64,000 nucleotides of DNA from an uncultured Desulfobacterales bacterium. GTDB lineage: Bacteria; Desulfobacterota; DSM-4660; Desulfatiglandales; HGW-15. The notes under the pieces are model-generated. The model worked only from the letters and a program-made list of their open reading frames with translations. It made no database searches and was not told the origin of the DNA. Below, one piece after another: positions 27,073 to 64,000 of the stretch. A program made the position numbers and the translations under genes. The stretch lies in contig CAYUBQ010000003.1 in assembly GCA_964443135.1 (NCBI GenBank), positions 62,174 through 126,173 of the forward strand, given 5' to 3'. The stretch's first letter is position 1. Each line of letters starts with the position of its first letter.

Positions 27073-27190
27073 GACATGCTCCTTTCTTTTGTCTTCGGGG
27101 TTTTCGCAGTTACCCGTCCCCGCCGTGAAAGCGTCTCCGGCGGGGGGTTCTCTTGTTTTGATTGCCTCGTCAAACGGACATGACCGGAGT

Positions 27191-27319
27191 CCGGTCACCC
27201 CGCTGATGAAAACCGGGTGTTTTCGTAGGGCGGGGTTTTACACCACGCCGTGCTTGTCGCAAGCCTTGCGGCGGCATGTGAGGCCCACCGCGGGGCATTT
27301 TCACGGTGAACAGTACCCG
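27191..27319 (+). repeat. REP-like dispersed repeat, family 2, copy A
   Basis: About 130 bp clearly alignable with 61520..61660. Shared blocks are CCGGTCACCCCGCTGATGAAAAC, CGTAGGGCGGGGTTTTACACC, GTGCTTGTCGCAAGCCTTGCGGCGGC and TTTTCACGGT. Confidence 0.75.
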
Positions 27320-29015: not shown

Positions 29016-29267
29016 GGTTGCCCTCCTCGCTCGAGCGTTCGTCTTTCTTTTCTATCCTCCGAAAAGCGGCCTCGATCCACAATGGGGTTGAACCCCCATT
29101 CGCGAAGGTCCCCGTGTGTAGACGGGATGAGGGTCCGAAGAATCGATGAGGCAAAAGGGGTCGGGACCATATACAGGATGGCGTGTATTGATCTGGAGGA
29201 TTCCGGTTTGCGATCCTGATGAAACCGGGAAGGGTCCCGGTGCATTCCAGTAAAAAAGGAGGTTCAA

Positions 29268-32849: not shown

Positions 32850-33072
32850 GACGGGCTCCGCTTCCGGGACCTCCGCCGTCCTCGACGGCGGATGAATGGT
32901 CACTGTACCACGATCGAGCACGGGTCGCACGTCCTGATCGGGCGCCCGTGAATGCCGGCCGGGGAACCCGGTTCGGGCGTGGTCGGGGCGCAGGGTGCCC
33001 CTGCGGCAATGGGATGGACATTCGGGCGTGATTTGGGTAGATTCGGAATCGATTGTGCGTCCCTGCCCGGGC

Positions 33073-33393
33073 GATTGACGCATTCGCAGAAACCCGCTCA
33101 CGCGCCGCTGGGGAGGGTATCACCTGTTGAAATCTCGTGGGCAGATCTCGAGGATTCGGGTTTTTTGCGACTCCATCAGGATTGACGCATTCGCAGAAAC
33201 CCGCTCACGCGCCGCTGGGGAGGGTATCACCTGTTGAAATCTCGTGGGCAGATCTCGAGGATTCGGGTTTTTTGCGACTCCATCAGGATTGACGCATTCG
33301 CAGAAACCCGCTCACGCGCCGCTGGGGACGATATCACCTGTTGAAATTCCAGGGGCAGATCTCGAGGATTCGGGTTTTTGCGACGCCATCACG
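33073..33393 (+). repeat. Tandem array of three 107-bp units (family 1): copies 1 and 2 identical, copy 3 diverged
   Basis: Units start at 33073, 33180 and 33287. Each carries TTGAAA-N17-GAGGAT and the core GCAGATCTCGAGGATTCGGGT(5-6)GCGAC. Confidence 0.95.
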
Positions 33394-33418
33394 ATTCTAC
33401 TCAACGGAGGTTGTGGTC

Positions 33419-34591
33419 ATGCCGATAGCGGAACGAATGGTGGGTATGGTGGAAGGCTCTTCCATGATTCGAAAGATGTTCGAGGAGGGGGCCCGGCTCA
33501 AGGCGGAGCACGGAGCCGACAAGGTGTTCGACTTCTCCCTCGGCAACCCGGACCTCCCCCCGCCCCAGGCATTCAAGCGGGCGCTGGTGGAGCTGATCGA
33601 GGATCCTTCCACGAGCCACGGCTACATGCCGAACCAGGGGTACCCGCAGGTGCGGCAGACGGTGTCCGGCTACATCCGGGAGGAGTACGGGGTGGAGATC
33701 CCCCCCGAGCTGATCGTCATGACCGTGGGCGCGGCCGGCGCGCTCAACGACTCCCTGACCGCCCTGATCAACCCGGGGGAGGAGGTCCTCGTGCCGTCCC
33801 CCTACTTCGTGGGATACAACCAGTACGCCTTCCAGGCGGGCGCCGTGGTCAAGACGGCGGAGACGGACCAGGCGTTCCGGCCGGACTTCGAGGCCCTGGA
33901 GCGGGCCGTCACCGAGAGGACGCGGGTCGTGCTCATCAACTCGCCCAACAACCCCACGGGCGTGGTCTACACGGCGGACGAGCTGAAGGGGTTCGGCGAC
34001 CTGCTGGAGCAGGCCAGCCGCAGGTACGGGAAACGCATCTACCTCATCTCCGACGAACCGTACCGGAAGATCGCCTACGACGTGGAGGTGCCGTCCGTGT
34101 TTCAGGCCTACCCCCACTCCATCCTGGTCACCTCCTACTCCAAGGAGCTGTCCCTGGCCGGGGAGCGCATCGGCTACCTGGCCGTCAACCCGGCGGCCGA
34201 GGACGCGGCCCAGGTGGCGGCCGCAGCGGCGGTCTCGAACACCATGCTCTACGTCAACGCCCCCAGCCTGTTCCAGCTGGCCATCGCAAAGGTCATGGGA
34301 ATCTCCGTGGACGTCTCCATCTACCGAAGGCGGCGCGACCTTCTCTGTGAGGGGCTCCGAAAGGCGGGGTACGTGTTCGTGGAGCCGAAGGGGGCGTTCT
34401 ACCTGTTCCCCGAGACGCCCATCGAGGACGACGTGGAGTTCTGCCGAATCCTGATGGAGGAGCTCATCCTGGCGGTGCCGGGAAGCGGCTTCGGCAGGGG
34501 CGGCCATTTCCGGCTCTCCTACGCCGTGCCGGATCAGGCCATATCCGGCGCCATGGAGGGGTTTGTGCGGGCCGTGGACAGGGCGTCCTGA
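33419..34591 (+). CDS. Class I/II pyridoxal-phosphate-dependent aminotransferase (aspartate-aminotransferase-like)
   Basis: DFSLGNPD, NSPNNPTG and SYSKELSLAGERIGY (PLP Lys) motifs. GGAGG RBS. Confidence 0.9.
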   Translation: MPIAERMVGMVEGSSMIRKMFEEGARLKAEHGADKVFDFSLGNPDLPPPQAFKRALVELIEDPSTSHGYMPNQGYPQVRQTVSGYIREEYGVEIPPELIVMTVGAAGALNDSLTALINPGEEVLVPSPYFVGYNQYAFQAGAVVKTAETDQAFRPDFEALERAVTERTRVVLINSPNNPTGVVYTADELKGFGDLLEQASRRYGKRIYLISDEPYRKIAYDVEVPSVFQAYPHSILVTSYSKELSLAGERIGYLAVNPAAEDAAQVAAAAAVSNTMLYVNAPSLFQLAIAKVMGISVDVSIYRRRRDLLCEGLRKAGYVFVEPKGAFYLFPETPIEDDVEFCRILMEELILAVPGSGFGRGGHFRLSYAVPDQAISGAMEGFVRAVDRAS

Positions 34592-34848: not shown

Positions 34849-35011
34849 GATGCTACACCCGGACGGCGAGGGTAGGTCTCGAGATCTTCTCATGGTTCCC
34901 ATGGCTGCCTCCCTGCGTTCTTCCCGGTCCGTTCCGACCCTCACAGGCTGGTCTCGACGGGGCGCCGGGTCGAGATCGGGGCACTACCTCGAAAATCCCG
35001 CACGCTTTTCC

Positions 35012-49289: not shown

Positions 49290-49493
49290 GGCTGCACGGG
49301 GTGGGCGCAAGGGGGGGAGCCGGCAAGGTGCGCCCGTTTCAGAGCCGGATCCGTGTCGAGGGAATCCATCGATCCCTGTATACGAACCATAAGGCCTGTC
49401 CGGGCACAGGTCAAGCAGGCTCCGGCCGCCGTCTTCCGTGGAAGGCACGCACCGTGCGGCTGGGTGATGGGTGTGGTCATGAGACCCCTTGGG

Positions 49494-49548
49494 ATATGAC
49501 TTTGTTTATAAAATATTTAAATTGAATAAAATTTATATATAATTAAGA
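49494..49548. promoter_or_regulatory. Extreme AT-rich tract in a divergent intergenic region
   Basis: ATATGACTTTGTTTATAAAATATTTAAATTGAATAAAATTTATATATAATTAAGAG. It contains TTTAAA-N16-TATAAT on the plus strand. Confidence 0.5.
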
Positions 49549-49709
49549 GCACCGCTGCTGGGAAGGCAAGGGGTGCGGCAGAGGCAGATCAGTGGCTTCC
49601 GTGCTGTTTGCGACGCCACTAAGGTTTGACACCTCGGGGAGGATTGGCTACCTTCTCCGGCACCATATCCCGTGCCGAAGCTCCGGACGGGAGCGTTCAA
49701 GGAGCATCC

Positions 49710-56235: not shown

Positions 56236-56598
56236 TCAAGCACCCGCGGGCTCGGACGGGGGCAGGGGAGACATCGCATCCAGGATGGAGAGCCCGACGA
56301 GGGTGTGATTGCGAAATCGACCCTCGACGGCCGGTGAAACGTGCTGGATTTTCGCACGCAGGATCCTGGGTGGTTCCGGGCTGACCGGACCGTAGAACTT
56401 CATTTCGAGGGTCGAACCCACGTGCAGGAAATCCAGCACGGGAGAATCCATGCGGACCAGAAAGCACAGCCCCTGGGCCGACAGGTTCCACAGGTTGAAC
56501 TGGTAGACATAGTCGAGCTCGGGCAGGGAAAGCTCCACGCTGTGGAAATCCCCTCCGGGGACGCGTTGCTCGCTCCGCCTGTCTGTTGGATCGATCAT
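56236..56598 (-). CDS. PilZ-domain protein
   Basis: RRSEQR (RxxxR) and NLSAQG (D/NxSxxG) c-di-GMP-binding motifs. 120 aa. Confidence 0.8.
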   Translation of the reverse strand: MIDPTDRRSEQRVPGGDFHSVELSLPELDYVYQFNLWNLSAQGLCFLVRMDSPVLDFLHVGSTLEMKFYGPVSPEPPRILRAKIQHVSPAVEGRFRNHTLVGLSILDAMSPLPPSEPAGA

Positions 56599-56613
56599 TT
56601 CCCGCTGTCTCCT

Positions 56614-56722
56614 GATTGACGGATTCGCAACAACCCGCTCACCCGCCGCTGGAAACGCTATAACCCGTTGACATTACCTGGGCAGATCTCGAGGTTGAGG
56701 CCTTTTTACGACTCCTTCCTGA
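56614..56722 (+). repeat. Dispersed copy of the 107-bp family-1 unit
   Basis: GATTGACGGATTCGCAACAACCCGCTCACCCGCCGCTGG...GTTGACATTACCTGGGCAGATCTCGAGGTTGAGGCCTTTTTACGACTCC. Carries TTGACA-N17-GAGGTT. Confidence 0.85.
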
Positions 56723-57248
56723 TTCGAGCGGGGGCGTCCTCCCGGAGCGGAGGTGCGGCCGGGTGTCGGGTCGTCGGCCCGGTCGCCTCACCCGTTCTCT
56801 CCCGGTCGAAGGCCCGCCGGGATCGGACCGGGATGTATCCCGCTTCCGAAACCGGAAGGAGGGTCCGGTGCCCGGACCCGCTGGAGATCCGTTCCAACGG
56901 TCCACGGCCGGATCGAGCAGGGAACCGGGGAACGGGAGAGAGCCTTCTCGAGGACTGCTGCGGGACCGGTTACGATGCAACCGGCGGGAAAAGACGGGGC
57001 CATGGACGCACGATGGCTTCGTTTTCGAAAGGCGGATGTCTCCGAGCTGTTCATGCTGTTCTCCAGGCGCGCTGCCGCAGCGGCCATGAGAATCGTGCCC
57101 CGTTCCTGTATAGGGCATCGACGGCGAATTTGCAACCGGCTTCGCATCCCGAGAAAGGAGATGCATCAACCATCGAAATGGGATAGGATCTCTCTACCCC
57201 CCCTGCAAAGAGCTTCCACAGGACGAAATCGGAAAGAGGAGGAAAGGG

Positions 57249-57726: not shown

Positions 57727-59160
57727 TCACTCGTGAAACGGCCGGCCTGCGGCCTTTCCCGCGACCTCCAGCAGGATCTCGGCCAGTGTGGGGTGGGCGT
57801 GGATGGTGTCGGCCACGTCCTGGACCGTGCACTGCCGCCGTATGGCCAGGGCCGCCTCGGCCACGAGGTCGGTGGCGCCGGCCCCCACCAGGTGAACCCC
57901 GAGGATGCGCCCGGTCCTCTCTTCGAGGACCAGCTTCGCCTCGCCCGCGATCCTTCCCAGGACCTGGGCCTTCCCCGAGGTCCGAAAGAGAACCGATTCC
58001 GAGCGCACCCCCAGCCCGGCCTCCCTGGCCTCGTCCTCGGTCCGGCCCACCACGCCGATCTCGGGAGCCGTGAAGATGGCCCCGGGTACCACGTCGTACC
58101 GCATCGGCCGATCCATGCCCATTGCGTTCTCGGCGGCCAGCCTTCCCTCGGCCGTGGCCACGTGGGCGAGCATGATCCGGCCGGGACCCAACGCGTCGCC
58201 CACGGCGTAGACGCCCGCGGCGCCGGTGCCTAGGCGATCGTCCGCCGGAATCCATCCTGCGGGATCCGGCTCCAGCCCGAGGTTTTCCAGGCCCAGCCCG
58301 GACGTGTCGGGCCGGCGTCCCACGCACACCAGGACGCAGTCCGCCTCCACGATCTCCGCGGGGCGTTCCCGCTGTTCCGATCCTGCGAAAGGGGACCCCC
58401 CGATGCGCACGCCGCAGCGTCCCCCGCGCTCCTCCACGCCTTCCACCCCGGCGTCCGCCAGGACCCGGATCTTTCGCTTCTTCATCTCCCGGAGCAGGGT
58501 CTTGACGCAGTCCCGGTCCACGCCGGGGATGGGGAGCAGCCGGTCCATCGCCTCCACCAGGGTCACCTGCGAGCCGAGCCCGGAAAAGATGGAGGCGAAC
58601 TCACAGCCGATGACGCCGCCCCCGACGATCACCATGGCGTCGGGCACGGCCTCCAGGGAGAGGGCGTGATCGCTGGAGAGGACCGTGGTGCCGTTGAACG
58701 GGAGGTGGGGCAGGGGCGCGGGGACCGAGCCGGTGGCGAGGATCAGCCGGTCCCATTCGACCGTTTCCAGGCCGCCTGCGGCTGGGGTGACGGAGAGCCG
58801 GCCGGGGCCCTCGACGCGGCCCTGCCCCTGGAGGTGCCGGATCCCCCGCTGCTTGAACAGGCGGAGGAGGCCCTGAATCTGGCCCTGGATCACCCGCTCC
58901 TTTCGCCGCATGAGCGCCGCCATGTCCGGAGAGGCGCCCCCTTCGACCGCGACGCCGAACTCCCCGGCCCGGCGCACCTGCTCCAGGACGTCGGCGGCCG
59001 TCTTCATCACCTTGGAGGGGATGCAGCCCCAGTTCAGGCAGGTTCCCCCGACGTTTCCCCGTTCGACGAGGGTGACCTCGGCCCCGAGCTGCGAGGCCCG
59101 GACCGCCGCGGCGTATCCTCCGGGACCCGCCCCGACCACGGCGACTCTGGTCCCGGTCAT
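57727..59160 (-). CDS. lpd: Dihydrolipoyl dehydrogenase
   Basis: GAGPGGY, redox-active GGTCLNWGCIPSK, GGGVIGCE and a C-terminal HAHPT motif. Confidence 0.92.
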   Translation of the reverse strand: MTGTRVAVVGAGPGGYAAAVRASQLGAEVTLVERGNVGGTCLNWGCIPSKVMKTAADVLEQVRRAGEFGVAVEGGASPDMAALMRRKERVIQGQIQGLLRLFKQRGIRHLQGQGRVEGPGRLSVTPAAGGLETVEWDRLILATGSVPAPLPHLPFNGTTVLSSDHALSLEAVPDAMVIVGGGVIGCEFASIFSGLGSQVTLVEAMDRLLPIPGVDRDCVKTLLREMKKRKIRVLADAGVEGVEERGGRCGVRIGGSPFAGSEQRERPAEIVEADCVLVCVGRRPDTSGLGLENLGLEPDPAGWIPADDRLGTGAAGVYAVGDALGPGRIMLAHVATAEGRLAAENAMGMDRPMRYDVVPGAIFTAPEIGVVGRTEDEAREAGLGVRSESVLFRTSGKAQVLGRIAGEAKLVLEERTGRILGVHLVGAGATDLVAEAALAIRRQCTVQDVADTIHAHPTLAEILLEVAGKAAGRPFHE

Positions 59161-60425
59161 GTTCCGCTCCTCTCGGGTCCGGCGGGCCCGCTCTCCCTGG
59201 ACTCCCGGTACCGCGCGATGTCCGACTCGGTGATGCCGAGGCAGTAGAGAATGTTGATCATCTGGTCGCCGCTGAATATGCCGTCCGCGGGCGGGATGCT
59301 TTCGGACGGCTTGCAGGCGATGGAAAGGCCCACGTCCTTCATGAAGCGGGACCCGGCCGATCCCCCTCCCACCGCCACCACCTGGTCCCGGCTGATCTCC
59401 TCCACGTTCATGATGAACTCCAGGATCTCGTTCTTGGTGGCCGCGGTCAGCACCGGCTCCTCGAGGCTCCCGGTGGCGTTTCCCGCTTCGTCTTTCTGGA
59501 GGGTGTTGCAGAACGCGTAGTCCACGCCTTCGGCCTCGTAGATGCCCCTCAAAAAGCAGTCCAGCCCCGTGGAGAGGAGGGCCACCTTGTACCCCATGGA
59601 CTTGAGGATGCGGAGCAGCTCCAGGGCCCCCGGGTGGAGCTCCAGCGAGCGGCCCGCCGTCTCGAGCTCCTGCACCGGGACGCCCCGAAGGGCCTCGACC
59701 CGATCGACCAGGGACTGGGTCCAGCCGCCCGGATCCGCCTGGAGCGGCGGCGCGATCCGCTTTCCCGCCGGGGCGATGCGCTCGTTGACCGCATCCAGAA
59801 AGCGGCGGACGGAGGTCTCCTCGATCAGGCAGGACTCCACGTCGAACACCACGATCTTCTTGGCCTGCCGGTAGGCGCTTTCGCTCTGGATGACCACGCT
59901 CTGGTTCAGGCGGCTGCAGAGCTCCTTCAGCTGCTCCTTCATGCCCTCCAGGGCCCCGGCCCGGGAGGGAAAAGGCTCCCGGCGGACGTCCCGGACGTCG
60001 ACGGTCGTCTCCATGGAGAAAAAGGTGCCCCGCGCGATCATGCGGCAGCTCTCGATGTTCGCGTTGAACCGGTGGAGAAGAGACGAGATCCCGGCGATGA
60101 TCCCGGGCCGATCCATGCCGAGAACGGTCACCAGAAGGTGCTCGCCGGGCCCCTCGCCCCGGTCTTCGTCGCACGCCCGGAGGATCACCTTGAGGCCGGT
60201 CTCCTCCTCGATGCGTTTCAGCGACCCTCGAATCTCCTCGGGGTCCCGGCGAGAGCCGGTGAAGTCGATGACGAGGAAAATGGAAAAGAGACCCCTGCGG
60301 CAGTTCTCCTCCACGTCCAGGATGTTTCCGCCCAGCCCCAGGACCCGTCCGGTGATCTTGGAGACGAGCCCGGGCGAGTCCAGCCCGATGGCCGAAAGGC
60401 TCATGATCTGCTTGAGCTCGGACAT
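59157..60425 (-). CDS. serB: Phosphoserine-phosphatase-like HAD hydrolase with two N-terminal ACT domains (SerB2-type architecture)
   Basis: Two ACT-like repeats (GLDSPGLVSKITG, GMDRPGIIAGISS), then a HAD motif I (VVFDVES) and downstream HAD blocks. Its stop overlaps the lpd start (ATGA). Confidence 0.8.
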   Translation of the reverse strand: MSELKQIMSLSAIGLDSPGLVSKITGRVLGLGGNILDVEENCRRGLFSIFLVIDFTGSRRDPEEIRGSLKRIEEETGLKVILRACDEDRGEGPGEHLLVTVLGMDRPGIIAGISSLLHRFNANIESCRMIARGTFFSMETTVDVRDVRREPFPSRAGALEGMKEQLKELCSRLNQSVVIQSESAYRQAKKIVVFDVESCLIEETSVRRFLDAVNERIAPAGKRIAPPLQADPGGWTQSLVDRVEALRGVPVQELETAGRSLELHPGALELLRILKSMGYKVALLSTGLDCFLRGIYEAEGVDYAFCNTLQKDEAGNATGSLEEPVLTAATKNEILEFIMNVEEISRDQVVAVGGGSAGSRFMKDVGLSIACKPSESIPPADGIFSGDQMINILYCLGITESDIARYRESRESGPAGPERSGT

Positions 60426-60439
60426 TCCTCCCCTCCCTC

Positions 60440-61339
60440 TCACGGTCGATCCGGTCCGGAGGACCGGCGGTCGTAGAACACGAAGACCTCTTCGCCGTAG
60501 TAGCGGCCGTTGATCACCTGCCCCGGTCCGAAACGCCGGATCTGCTTGCCCCGGAGGAAGCTCTCGAACCGTTCGTTCATCTCCTCCAGCGCAACGTCCT
60601 CCCGGAACCATCGGACCGGCACGTTCACGTTGATGGGGCGCGCCGACACCAGGTGTCGGGTCGCCTTGGGCGCGAACACCTGGCCGCGGCTCGCCGCGTC
60701 CACCACCATAGCTTTTGTGATGTGCGGTGTCCAGATGGCGAGTGCGTTTCGGCCGGGCACTCGGCAGGAGGCGTCGCCGGCCAGGTCCTGGCACGGGACG
60801 TACTCCAGCTCCGCCCCCTCCCGCACCAGCCGCCCCTGGATCCGCTCCAGGACCTCGTAGGCCTCGACCCCGCCGCAGACCCGGTCCGGGGGGAAGCGGA
60901 GCACCCCCCTGGCCTCCCCGCACTCCGCGCCCATGAGGAGGGGGTCCTGCTCGAGCCGGGCGGCGAGGGCCCGCCGGCCGGCCACAGGCTCCAGGCTTCC
61001 CCCCATCTCCTCGACGATCCCGCAGAGCCCTTCCAGGCTGCACACCCTCTTCAGCAGCCGGAACCAGTAGCGCAGCCCCACGTGATCGCTGTGGTAGTCG
61101 ATCCTGCAGACCGGGATGGTGCGGAACCCCAGACGCTTGAACACGAAGGTGCGGTGGTTGCCGTCCAGGACGATGTGGTTCCGCTCGACGATGATCGGGT
61201 TCTGGAGGCGGGCCCAGTCCTTGAGCTCGAGGGCGAGGCTGTCGGCCACGTGGGGAAGGGTCTCCTCGTGCTCTCGAAGCGTCTCGACCCGGACGACTTC
61301 CAGGTGCATGGTCAGGTCACCGGCCTCGATGACGAACAT
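60440..61339 (-). CDS. ParB/Srx-fold (ParB-like nuclease domain) protein of unknown function
   Basis: The N-terminal NPIIVERNHIVLDGNHRTFVFKRLG is the ParB/sulfiredoxin-type DGxHR motif. 299 aa. GGGAGG RBS. The track ORF extends upstream across a repeat. Confidence 0.7.
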   Translation of the reverse strand: MFVIEAGDLTMHLEVVRVETLREHEETLPHVADSLALELKDWARLQNPIIVERNHIVLDGNHRTFVFKRLGFRTIPVCRIDYHSDHVGLRYWFRLLKRVCSLEGLCGIVEEMGGSLEPVAGRRALAARLEQDPLLMGAECGEARGVLRFPPDRVCGGVEAYEVLERIQGRLVREGAELEYVPCQDLAGDASCRVPGRNALAIWTPHITKAMVVDAASRGQVFAPKATRHLVSARPINVNVPVRWFREDVALEEMNERFESFLRGKQIRRFGPGQVINGRYYGEEVFVFYDRRSSGPDRP

Positions 61340-61385
61340 CGTTTCGGTCCTCCCAACGTGCCCGAAGCTCGAAATGACGCGGATA

Positions 61386-61497
61386 CCGGTGGAGTCCCAA
61401 AAAGCCCGAAGCTTCGAGATCGTCCCTGGAATATCAACAGCTCCAGCGTTTCCGGAGGCGGGTGAGCGGGCTTTTGCGAATCCGTCGGTACCCAAAC
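61386..61497 (-). repeat. Dispersed copy of the 107-bp family-1 unit (reverse orientation)
   Basis: The reverse complement reads ACGGATTCGCAAAAGCCCGCTCACCCGCCTCCGGAAACGCTGGAGCTGTTGATATTCCAGGGACGATCTCGAAGCTTCGGGCTTTTTGGGACTCC. Confidence 0.85.
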
Positions 61498-61519
61498 GTC
61501 CATGGCCGGCGTCCGGCTT

Positions 61520-61660
61520 CCGGTCACCCCCGCTGATGAAAACGGGTGTCGTAGGGCGGGGTTTTACACCCCGTCGTGCTTGTCGCAAGCCTTGCGGCGG
61601 CGTGTGAAATGCCGCCCTACGCCCGGACCACCGAGGGGCTTTTTCACGGTAAAGGGTGCT
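61520..61660 (+). repeat. REP-like dispersed repeat, family 2, copy B
   Basis: Aligns with 27191..27319. Contains the 10-bp inverted repeat CGTAGGGCGG (61550..61559) / CCGCCCTACG (61612..61621). Confidence 0.75.
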
Positions 61661-64000
61661 ACCCGGATCGGACCAGGCCGTGCAGGTTCTCCATCAAGGA
61701 ATCCAACTCGTCTTCCCGGAAGCAGTACAGCAGGGTGGTGTGCGGCTGCCTCATGGCGCGCACCCCGTCGCGGACGTCCGCGCCGTCCACCAGCACGTCA
61801 CGGATCATCTGGGCCAGCTCCTGGAAGTCCGGCTCGCCCATGCCGAAGCGGGTCATCTCGGCCGCGCCCATGCGAAGGGCCCCCGAGGCCGTGAAGCCCT
61901 CCTCCTCAGGGGTCGCCTGGTAGTTGCAGATGATGTTGTTGTCCTCCAGTGCGGATGCGGCCTCGGGCCCTTTTCCGTAGCCCACGCGGACCACGACCTG
62001 GTGGGTCTCGGTGAACCCCTCGTCCGGATCGCCGGCCACGTCCAGGCCGCAGTCGTTCAGGGCCCGCGCAAAGGCCCGGGCGTTGGCGATCACACGGGGC
62101 TGGTACTCGTCCTTGAACCGGTTCATCTCGTAGGCGGCCATGAGAAGCCCCAGCATGGTGCCCAGGTGATGGTTGGAGACCGAACCGGGGAAGGTCCGCG
62201 CGGCCACCGACTCCCAGAGGGCGTAGCGCTCCTCCTCTTCCTGAAGTCGGGTCGCCGCGATGCCCCGCTGGGTGCCGAAAAAGGTCTTGTGGGTGGAGCC
62301 GGTGACCAGGTCGGCCCCTTCCCGGAAGGGTTCCTGGAAGTGGGGTCCCGCCAGGCCGAGAACGTGGGCCATGTCGTACATCACCACCGCGTCGATGCCG
62401 CTCTCGTCGAGGAATCGGCGAACGGCCTCCACGGGCTCCCGGCAGAGGACCATGCTCTTCCCGAAGATGATGAGCCGGGGGCGCACCTCGTCGATGCGCT
62501 CGAGGGTCGCCTGCACGTCCACGCGGTACGGGTTGTGGGGGAGGACGGGGAAGGGGACCACGGCGGGCCGTTCGGTCCGGGGGTCCCGTGCCACGAAGTC
62601 CCGGAGCGCGCCCATGGGCTGGGAGCTCAGGTGGCCCCCCTTGGCGATGTGGTGGTTCATGACCGGTGCGATGCGCCGGGGCTCCCGCCTCGGGTCGTCC
62701 CGGTTCAGGTACTGCATCATGGCGCTGAAGACGGCGGTGTTGGCCATCTGCCCGCTGATCAGCCGGGTCTCCAGCTCGGTGCAGCCGAGAAAGAGGGCCA
62801 GCTCCCGCTCGAGGAGCCGTTCGACGCGGGCGATGAACTCCGTACCCTGGTAGTAGAACACCTCCGTGTCGTAAAAGGCGCGGACCTTGCGGTGCTCGGC
62901 GTAGCGGAACGAGGGATCCATGATGGAGAGGAGCCGGACCATGGGCGATGGGGTCATCTCGGAGGGGATCAGGTTGATGCATTCCCTCTGACGCCAGACC
63001 GTGTTCTCGACGGCCTCCTCGAGGAGCTTCCGGGCCGAGGTCGCGGCCGGCTCGGGCTCGGCAGGTTCGGCGCCCGCCACGATGGGCCGGGCATAGGGCG
63101 GGGCGTCGTTCCTGAGGTGGTAGGGGACGACCTTCGCCTCGACGGTGCGGCCCCGGACCTCGACGGTCACCTCGTCGTCCTCCAGGAGGTCCGCATCGAT
63201 GTAGGCCAGGCCCAGCCCCCGAAGCCCGTGCTCTTCGAGCTGGACCGAGGCGAGCCCTTCTCCTCCCACCTTCCAGTAGGGAACCATGGTGCCGCTGGTC
63301 ACCCAGCCCACGTGCCCGCCGTGCCGAAAGACCCGGGAGCCCTCCCGGGCCACGCCCCTCCCGGTCACGGCCAGGGGGCGGACGATGCGGGGGAGATCGG
63401 CGATCCCGGAGTAGTCCCGGACCAGGATGCGGCCGCGCGCCTCGAACTGGCGGAGGAGGATCTCCCTTCCCACGAACGCCCCCTTGAGGGGACTGAAGCT
63501 CACGGCGAAGCGGGCCAGGGGGCAGGCCATGATGGGGATCTCCCGGCCTTCCGGGTCCGTTCCCAGCTCGTGCCCGTAGAGTGGAAGCCCCGCCTCGAGG
63601 CGCAGGGTGTCCCGGGCGCCCAGTCCCACGGGGGAGGCGCCGTGCTCCAGCAGGAGGTCCCAGACGAGGGGGGCCGCCTCGGAGGGCAGGAACAGCTCGA
63701 AGCAGACGGGCTCCCCGGTGTACCCGGTCCGGGCCGTCTGAACCTCGTGACCCTGGATCGTCACCGTGCCCACGGCGTTCCGCATGGGCTCGGGGAGGTC
63801 GCCTGCTTCGACCAGCGGCACCAGGATGTCGCGGGAGAGGGGGCCCTGCAGGGCCAGCATGGCGATCTCGGCGGTCCGGTCCTCGAGCTCGACCCCGTCG
63901 AATGCGGCGGCGGCGGACCGGAGATGGGCCCAGTCCTTGTCCTTGTTGGACGCGTTCACCACCAGGAGAAAGGCGTCCTCCTCGAACCGGTAGAGGTAGG
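61659..64000 (-). CDS. Fusion protein: aminomethyltransferase (GcvT) N-terminal part plus serine-hydroxymethyltransferase-like C-terminal part (5' end outside the window)
   Basis: GcvT motifs (LALQGP, ARTGYTGE, ARDTLRLEAGL), a linker AGAEPAEPEPAATS, then SHMT-like INLIPSEMTPSP, GGHLSS and GSTHKTFFGTQRG. The frame is still open at 64000. Confidence 0.85.
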   Translation of the reverse strand, partial: YLYRFEEDAFLLVVNASNKDKDWAHLRSAAAAFDGVELEDRTAEIAMLALQGPLSRDILVPLVEAGDLPEPMRNAVGTVTIQGHEVQTARTGYTGEPVCFELFLPSEAAPLVWDLLLEHGASPVGLGARDTLRLEAGLPLYGHELGTDPEGREIPIMACPLARFAVSFSPLKGAFVGREILLRQFEARGRILVRDYSGIADLPRIVRPLAVTGRGVAREGSRVFRHGGHVGWVTSGTMVPYWKVGGEGLASVQLEEHGLRGLGLAYIDADLLEDDEVTVEVRGRTVEAKVVPYHLRNDAPPYARPIVAGAEPAEPEPAATSARKLLEEAVENTVWRQRECINLIPSEMTPSPMVRLLSIMDPSFRYAEHRKVRAFYDTEVFYYQGTEFIARVERLLERELALFLGCTELETRLISGQMANTAVFSAMMQYLNRDDPRREPRRIAPVMNHHIAKGGHLSSQPMGALRDFVARDPRTERPAVVPFPVLPHNPYRVDVQATLERIDEVRPRLIIFGKSMVLCREPVEAVRRFLDESGIDAVVMYDMAHVLGLAGPHFQEPFREGADLVTGSTHKTFFGTQRGIAATRLQEEEERYALWESVAARTFPGSVSNHHLGTMLGLLMAAYEMNRFKDEYQPRVIANARAFARALNDCGLDVAGDPDEGFTETHQVVVRVGYGKGPEAASALEDNNIICNYQATPEEEGFTASGALRMGAAEMTRFGMGEPDFQELAQMIRDVLVDGADVRDGVRAMRQPHTTLLYCFREDELDSLMENLHGLVRSG

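Follow-up and report, generated by a model that had tools for sequence, protein, structure and literature searches.

A dispersed 107-bp repeat of uncultured Desulfobacterales-type bacteria is very probably a non-autonomous DNA transposon (MITE)

Introduction

The Correia (or NEMIS) elements of Neisseria are MITEs of about 107 and 155 bp that carry inverted repeats of about 24 bp, duplicate their target and occur in many copies; these copies are mostly intergenic, often just upstream of genes, and some contain sigma-70-like hexamers and are co-transcribed (PMC2229807, PMC10969869). In the pneumococcus, the 107-bp RUP is a non-coding intergenic repeat with approximately 100 copies, which is thought to be mobilised in trans by the transposase of an insertion sequence (IS) and has no other known function (PMC2229807). 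TIMEs, which are likewise non-coding and are predicted to fold when transcribed, have imperfect inverted repeats of about 38 bp and, on insertion into relatively A/T-rich targets, duplicate 5 or 6 bp (PMC4133298). The occurrence of promoter hexamers inside MITEs is a known phenomenon (PMC10969869).

Here we analyze a repeat of comparable size in a stretch of 64,000 nt (the window; 67% G+C) from an uncultured Desulfobacterales bacterium. An earlier note on this DNA had described the repeat as a candidate portable promoter/operator module, always oriented towards a start codon downstream of it; we conclude that it is very probably a non-autonomous DNA transposon (MITE), a well-known class of mobile DNA in bacteria. 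The family resembles the Correia elements in its size, inverted repeats, target duplication, intergenic position near gene starts and many copies, but whereas the latter duplicate TA and are A+T-rich, the present element has a 5-6 bp duplication of the form N-S-W-T-T, a G+C content of about 60%, no shared sequence and hosts of the uncultured Desulfobacterales type. For RUP, the insertion site is TA and the ends correspond to those of IS630-Spn1; here, in contrast, the duplication is 5-6 bp long, and a matching IS was not found in the window, the loci of relatives, the plasmids or the viral contigs searched. The long imperfect inverted repeats and the 5-6 bp duplication at A/T-rich targets are shared with TIMEs, although TIMEs measure 262 bp, usually occur once per genome (which is attributed to transposition immunity) and have ends homologous to those of the Tn3 family, whereas the present family has dozens of copies, some of them in tandem. 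Finally, the element is similar to “mobile promoter” MITEs and IS ends in being transposable, in its -35-like hexamer and in its frequent position upstream of genes (PMC10969869), but it departs from that idea in showing no orientation bias, no consensus -10 and a probable native promoter that is kept upstream. A full-text search of the literature turned up no MITE described for organisms of the Desulfobacterales type, and the family therefore appears to be undescribed.

Results

Tandem Repeats Finder (TRF) reported a single array in the window (33073-33396, period 107, 3.0 copies, 95% matches), and nhmmer with a profile of the unit recovered exactly five strong copies (E 1e-23 to 1e-35) at 33073, 33180 and 33287 (all +), at 56614-56720 (+) and at 61492-61386 (-). 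The single dispersed unit of about 107 bp is thus real, and the copies that the earlier note had placed near 56614..56722 (+) and 61497..61386 (-) are both strong matches. Its remaining candidates did not survive the profile search or a count of chance occurrences: a “3' partial copy” at 29190-29222 (E=16) and a “degenerate copy” at about 27100-27185 (E=14) scored at chance level, and for the isolated 10-mer AGATCTCGAG at 34878, a single additional occurrence compares with a chance expectation of 0.32. The coordinates of the copies, their flanking repeats and two associated features are given in Table 1. About 30 bp before the probable decayed half copy listed there, which the earlier note had overlooked, a very A/T-rich island of about 60 bp (ctttgtttataaaatatttaaattgaataaaatttatatataattaag) occupies positions 49490-49550.

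Table 1. Copies of the element, their flanking duplications and associated features in the window (E values from nhmmer with the unit profile).
Feature	Position	Strand	Remarks
Candidate native sigma-70-like promoter, TGGACA-17-TAGATT	33015..33043	+	Outside the element; kept in L035 and L039
Left target-site duplication of the tandem array, CGATT	33072..33076	+	CGATT again at 33392-33396, straight after copy 3
Element copy 1 of the array, core GACGC...CCATCA	33077..33178	+	E 2e-30; TRF period 107; identical to copy 2
Junction of copies 1 and 2, GGATT	33179..33183	+	Shared; resembles a target-site duplication (one mismatch to CGATT)
Element copy 2 of the array	33184..33285	+	E 2e-30
Junction of copies 2 and 3, GGATT	33286..33290	+	
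Element copy 3 of the array	33291..33391	+	E 3e-30; about 6 positions unlike copies 1 and 2
Right target-site duplication of the array, CGATT	33392..33396	+	
Probable remnant of another copy (decayed 3' half), GGCAGATC...TTTGCGACGCCAC	49579..49621	+	E=0.15, marginal; right-end repeat with 4 mismatches in 22
Left target-site duplication, TGATT	56613..56617	+	CTGATT if counted as 6 bp; a single ...ggtctcCTGATTcaaacg in L040
Element copy, core GACGG...CTCCTTCC	56618..56719	+	E 5e-29; absent from orthologous L040
Right target-site duplication, TGATT	56720..56724	+	
Right target-site duplication, GTATC	61382..61386	-	Single CGGTAT at the site in relatives
Element copy	61387..61486	-	E 3e-23; absent from the orthologous 57-bp spacer of L089, L090 and L091
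Left target-site duplication, GTACC (element orientation)	61487..61491	-	4/5 bases shared with GTATC; 6-mers GGTACC/GGTATC

To find related copies, each species was represented by a single genome and searched with 25 nt of the 5' arm as the pattern, which gave at least 33 loci. Because the loci were gathered with a 5'-arm pattern, conservation of this arm is inflated and divergent subfamilies are under-sampled. Among the matches listed, nhmmer found about 45 further copies in the 33 loci; the metagenome-assembled genome (MAG) CAYVVQ01 alone has at least 25, and almost all of the loci belong to the uncultured “Desulfobacterales” MAGs CAYVVQ01, CAYYVD01 and CAYVDE01 and to the “Deltaproteobacteria bacterium” MAG JAIPEI01. 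The loci from Hahella and Acetobacteraceae contained no copy and represent chance matches to the pattern. No match to the element was found in a collection of 72,556 plasmids; a single 22-nt partial match in the viral contigs, on a contig with 46% G+C, was judged irrelevant. Single copies, full or cut, were also seen on contigs binned to unrelated phyla (L005, Brocadiaceae; L008, Chloroflexaceae; L029, Synergistaceae; G+C 52-61%), which reflects either mis-binned contigs or movement of the element between lineages.

The element has sharp boundaries: in all of the 41 full-length copies with flanks it starts with GACG and ends with CCATC(A). The core (GACGG/C...CCATC(A)) is 100-102 bp long in the 40 aligned copies; it is non-coding and was judged too short for an ORF of even 20 aa. 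The first four bases of the unit as originally delimited vary by copy (GATT, CATT, CTTT, AATT, GTCT and others), and these bases, with one or two more of the flank, recur directly past the 3' end of each copy. An exact 5/5 flanking repeat at zero offset was present in 19 of the 41 copies, compared with 3.4% of mismatched left/right pairings; identity at the three variable flank positions was found in 20/41 (4.3% in mismatched pairings) and an exact 6/6 repeat in 17/41 (1.8%), and the mean longest flank match was 4.17 against 2.61 (maximum 3.05) over 200 re-pairings. In the two window copies that do not end in A, the sixth base agrees too (CTGATT/CTGATT and GGTACC/GGTATC). The duplicated site thus spans 5-6 bp and has the consensus N-S-W-T-T, usually with an A before it. 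About one third of the copies are without a clean flanking repeat, and these may be old or decayed. Tandem copies joined by one shared pentamer, as in the array of the window, also occur in L009, L020 and L027; the layout in L009 is TGATT-copy-TGATT-copy-TGATT, and its two copies come from different subfamilies.

For all three insertions in the window, an empty orthologous site was found in close relatives. In L040 (Usp 90% identical, DNA 84-85% identical on both sides), the sequence runs without interruption through a single CTGATT (...ggtctcCTGATTcaaacg), whereas the window reads ...gtctcCTGATT[GACGG...CTTC]CTGATTcgagcg at the same site, and the copy is precisely absent from L040. The three-copy array is absent from L035 and L036, which have the same divergent radical-SAM neighbour and an aminotransferase 93% identical to that of the window; in L035 the site is uninterrupted, with ...GTAGGATC leading directly into CTATTCAATGGAGG. 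Some 120 bp from that site, each of these two loci has a single copy on the opposite strand with GATTT on either side, and the window sequence is uninterrupted there; L039 (85% identical) has no element in the region upstream of the aminotransferase. The spacer between the gene for a fused GcvT-SHMT protein and that for a 299-aa protein is 57 bp long in L089 (95% identical) and in L090 and L091 (89%), where it reads ...CCCTTTCGGTATTTGCG...; the corresponding spacer in the window measures 319 bp, its extra sequence consisting of the element, with its GGTACC/GGTATC flanks, and a second, unrelated repeat. The target-site duplications and the empty orthologous sites together show that the copies are transposon insertions, and since the unit is in all probability a transposon, the portability claimed for it by the earlier note holds in the literal sense.

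Several further features were observed around these sites. Between the copy at 56618-56719 and usp lies a G+C-rich non-coding stretch of about 520 bp (56725-57248) that is about 84% conserved in L040 and in which no RNA family was detected. The second dispersed repeat is about 125-165 nt long, starts with ACCGTGAAAA and has a palindromic core (GGGCGTAGGGCGG...CCGCCCTACGA); it was found at 61492-61655 (-) and 27184-27310 (-) of the window, at 7093-7222 of L014 and at 4648-4754 of L033, so that one window copy stands directly 5' of the element at 61486 and the other beside the “degenerate copy” at about 27100. This repeat matched no Rfam family, is lacking in the orthologous spacer of L089 and L090, and is probably another small mobile element. 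The spacer itself belongs to a serine/glycine cluster at 57727-63998 (-), which encodes the fused GcvT-SHMT protein (882 aa in L090) as well as ACT-HAD phosphatase-like and dihydrolipoamide-dehydrogenase-like proteins. The 299-aa protein of this cluster has no Pfam hit, and JGI alone names its homologues “L-serine kinase (ADP)”; no support was found for the label “ParB-like” given to it in the earlier note.

The outer ~20 nt of both ends form imperfect terminal inverted repeats (GAYGGnnTCGCAAAAA(G)CCCG), and a looser symmetry reaches about 40 nt inward, around a centre of about 19 nt that bears TTGAAA; in nhmmer, the 5' arm of the profile also gave a weak match to a copy read in reverse. The two ends of the unit can thus pair, as had been suggested, and the paired ends are its terminal inverted repeats. 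In the outer helix of 18 pairs, 82.8% of the cells are complementary, a share that drops to 32-58% if the partner arm is shifted by 1-3 columns. The inner arms (columns 28-37/57-66) are paired in 88.9% of the cells and occur in three co-varying states (GGAAA/TTTCC, GGGGA/TCCC and GGTA/TGCC), with double-sided changes in 39 cells against 15.6 in shuffles, an excess that kinship among the copies alone may produce without structure.

Such pairing could also be expected of a structured RNA (a cis-regulatory leader, a small RNA or a terminator) that was copied round the genome and had the end-to-end helix as its functional core. The complementary ends, the double changes in the inner helix (pair 36-58: AU 13, GC 12, UG 5), where G-U exceeds A-C by 34 to 8, and a hairpin of 5 pairs with a T-run that was flagged as terminator-like in four of the five window copies are all in keeping with it, but the following observations count against it. 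The outer helix shows no covariation across the 40 copies and its wobble bias is reversed (A-C 39, G-U 19); at the two end columns where the earlier note had seen a compensatory difference, 29 of the 40 copies have the unpaired state A/C, five have A/T and two have G/C. The terminator-like hairpin (CTCGAGGATTCGGG followed by the T-run; columns 71-84) is broken in about half of the copies and has no double changes. The folding energy is no better than that of shuffled sequences in six of seven strands (z -2.4 to +0.5, the exception being one copy with z=-2.4), the RNAalifold consensus of the 40 copies reaches only -7.6 kcal/mol, and Rfam, in agreement with the earlier note's failure to recognise the unit, gives no family at the gathering or E-value threshold. 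Moreover, orthologous loci differ in the presence or absence of the unit. Taken with the kinship caveat, a wobble bias that favours one strand in the outer helix and the other strand in the inner helix led us to read the covariation of the inner arms as matching end sites that diverged together in subfamilies, not as an RNA fold, and we consider a structured RNA highly improbable, although the inner-arm covariation could reflect selection on a hairpin (in single-stranded DNA or RNA) instead of two transposase-binding sites. One further “covarying” pair (5-26; GC 20, CG 18) was set aside because it probably represents a single subfamily split.

Recognition of hairpins would also suit a REP/BIME-type repeat or a palindrome derived from IS200/IS605 and moved by a tyrosine (HUH) transposase, and the element is indeed largely palindromic, intergenic and G+C-rich, with copies that can stand head to tail and with the covariation of the inner arms that recognition of this kind might leave. 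IS200/IS605 and REP/RAYT systems, however, insert beside a fixed tetra- or pentanucleotide without duplicating the target. As such systems do not duplicate variable target bases, they do not fit a family in which 3-4 variable bases are duplicated on both sides and in which the empty sites do contain the flanking pentamer; in addition, no gene for RAYT or TnpA was seen nearby. An origin of this kind is extremely unlikely.

We then return to the MITE reading and to the relation of its copies to genes. Of the 53 matches, 49 overlap predicted coding sequence by no more than 6 nt, the gene positions in the loci having been taken from a codon-bias model and not from curated annotation (the model agrees with Pfam on nine window proteins and with the called genes in the fetched loci). 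At all three loci of the window, the 3' side of the element faces a start codon on the same strand, at 28 nt from the end of array copy 3 (aminotransferase, 33419), at 49 nt (299-aa gene, 61339) and at 531 nt (usp, from the copy at 56614). This is what the earlier note had observed, but it carries little weight, because at two of the three loci the flanking genes diverge, so that a copy would face a start whichever way it was inserted. Outside the window, the copies at 18 co-directional intergenic sites divide into 10 that face the start and 8 that face away from it (binomial p=0.81), and five others lie in divergent regions and three in convergent regions, i.e., between gene ends; the claim that the unit always points at a start codon is thus not supported. 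In about 10 copies, including the one at 56618-56719 (whose 5' end is 16-20 nt from the start codon, at 56598, of a divergent minus-strand ORF), the 5' end adjoins a Shine-Dalgarno sequence, with the start codon, which is on the opposite strand, 11-39 nt away; an asymmetric, A/T-leaning target motif fits these copies better than a gene-facing promoter does. The copy in L090 stands downstream of lpd, and no gene start was seen in the roughly 280 bp of sequence covered there.

These observations bear on the proposal that the unit supplies the downstream gene with a -35/-10 pair and a protein-binding core (AGATCTCGAGGAT). Its -35-like hexamer is TTGAAA, TTGATA or TTGACA in 31 of the 40 copies (19, 11 and 1, respectively; the consensus TTGACA reported at 56668 is present, but the family hexamer mostly differs from it), and 17 nt downstream of it stands a second hexamer with A at its second and T at its sixth position. 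For other MITEs, such as Correia, MITEAba12 and BrickBuilt, sigma-70-like promoters have been demonstrated or proposed (PMC10969869). Nevertheless, none of the five window copies passed a sigma-70 consensus scan (-35 and -10 hexamers with at least 4/6 consensus positions each, spaced by 16-18 nt), since the second hexamer (GAGGAT, AAGGCT, GAAGCT or similar) retains only A2 and T6 and fits the consensus in only 2-3 of 6 positions. The orthologous genes of relatives do without the unit, and upstream of the array there is a conserved promoter-like box, the candidate in Table 1, which is the only promoter-like match in the gap between the radical-SAM and aminotransferase genes (32850-33420) and, judged by its sequence, is likely to be the native promoter of the aminotransferase gene. 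This would place the array downstream of a probable native promoter and ahead of the ribosome-binding site. A directed promoter or operator role is thus not supported by the consensus scan, the orientation of the copies, the empty orthologous sites or the native promoter, and we regard this part of the original proposal as quite unlikely; even if some copies fire, the principle would not be new, because promoter hexamers in MITEs are already known.

Discussion

Five of the six features by which MITEs are recognised were found in this family, i.e., a small non-coding unit, inverted repeats, target duplication, many copies, and filled and empty sites. A fuzzy search for the end repeats in the window and the loci returned only relics and one nested copy, but no autonomous element and no transposase with matching ends, and the plasmid collection and the viral contigs likewise yielded neither. 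The terminal GGGG is characteristic of Tn3-family ends, which sets them apart from the GACGG/GATGG termini of the present element, and the element showed no similarity to the plasmid records, in which the Tn3 family is abundant. We considered a likeness between the 5' arm (TTCGCAAAAA...ACGC) and the inverted repeats of the Tn3 family but did not adopt it, because the termini differ and the family does not show the single-copy behaviour expected from immunity. In L004 (1193-1430), a copy of the element is split by an insert of about 118 bp that is flanked by an 8-bp direct repeat (CTTAGGGC), which looks, from its sequence, like a third small element nested in the first.

The following mechanism may account for the distribution of the copies. 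A transposase encoded elsewhere, presumably a DDE-type enzyme acting in trans, would bind both ends (GAYGG...CCCG) and excise or copy the element, which would then insert at staggered cuts 5-6 bp apart, with a preference for the relatively A/T-rich N-S-W-T-T; repair of the gaps would leave the flanking direct repeat of 5-6 bp. In a genome with 67% G+C, sites of this kind would be mostly intergenic and near gene starts, and the target preference might thus explain the proximity of the copies to genes. A new insertion into the duplicated pentamer beside an existing copy, or unequal recombination between pentamers, might give rise to tandem arrays, in which units would then be duplicated. The different subfamilies of the two copies in L009 point to repeated insertion into a duplicated target, whereas the identity of copies 1 and 2 of the window array points to a later duplication of the unit. 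Any effects on neighbouring genes would be a by-product, either by co-transcription inside 5' leaders or by a weak outward promoter from the internal TTGAAA.

A more far-reaching proposal is that the family belongs to an undescribed IS or transposon lineage of the Desulfobacterota, with GAYGG termini, a 5-6 bp N-S-W-T-T duplication and tolerance of tandem self-insertion, and that TTGAAA-17-nAnnnT acts as a weak outward promoter. As a whole, we consider this rather unlikely. If true, insertions between native promoters and ribosome-binding sites would rewire expression and the number of copies would tune it, for which the three-copy array upstream of the aminotransferase gene would be the example.

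Recognition of the unit as a MITE is of value for annotation, as it avoids mistaking such units for regulatory motifs or RNA genes, and the copies can serve as presence/absence markers in strain-level comparisons within this uncultured lineage of Desulfobacterales and sulfate-reducer type. Those that stand between a promoter and a ribosome-binding site, of which there are several, offer natural experiments on insertions into leaders; if some copies initiate transcription, they would add one more case of a promoter-bearing MITE. The element is also encountered at the ends of assembled sequences: among the Logan short-read contigs of the same organism, L001 (1-47) ends inside a copy, and L088, with a copy at 50-149, ends within 50 nt of it, beside an adjacent repeat. 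The units and their tandem arrays seem to fragment short-read assemblies.
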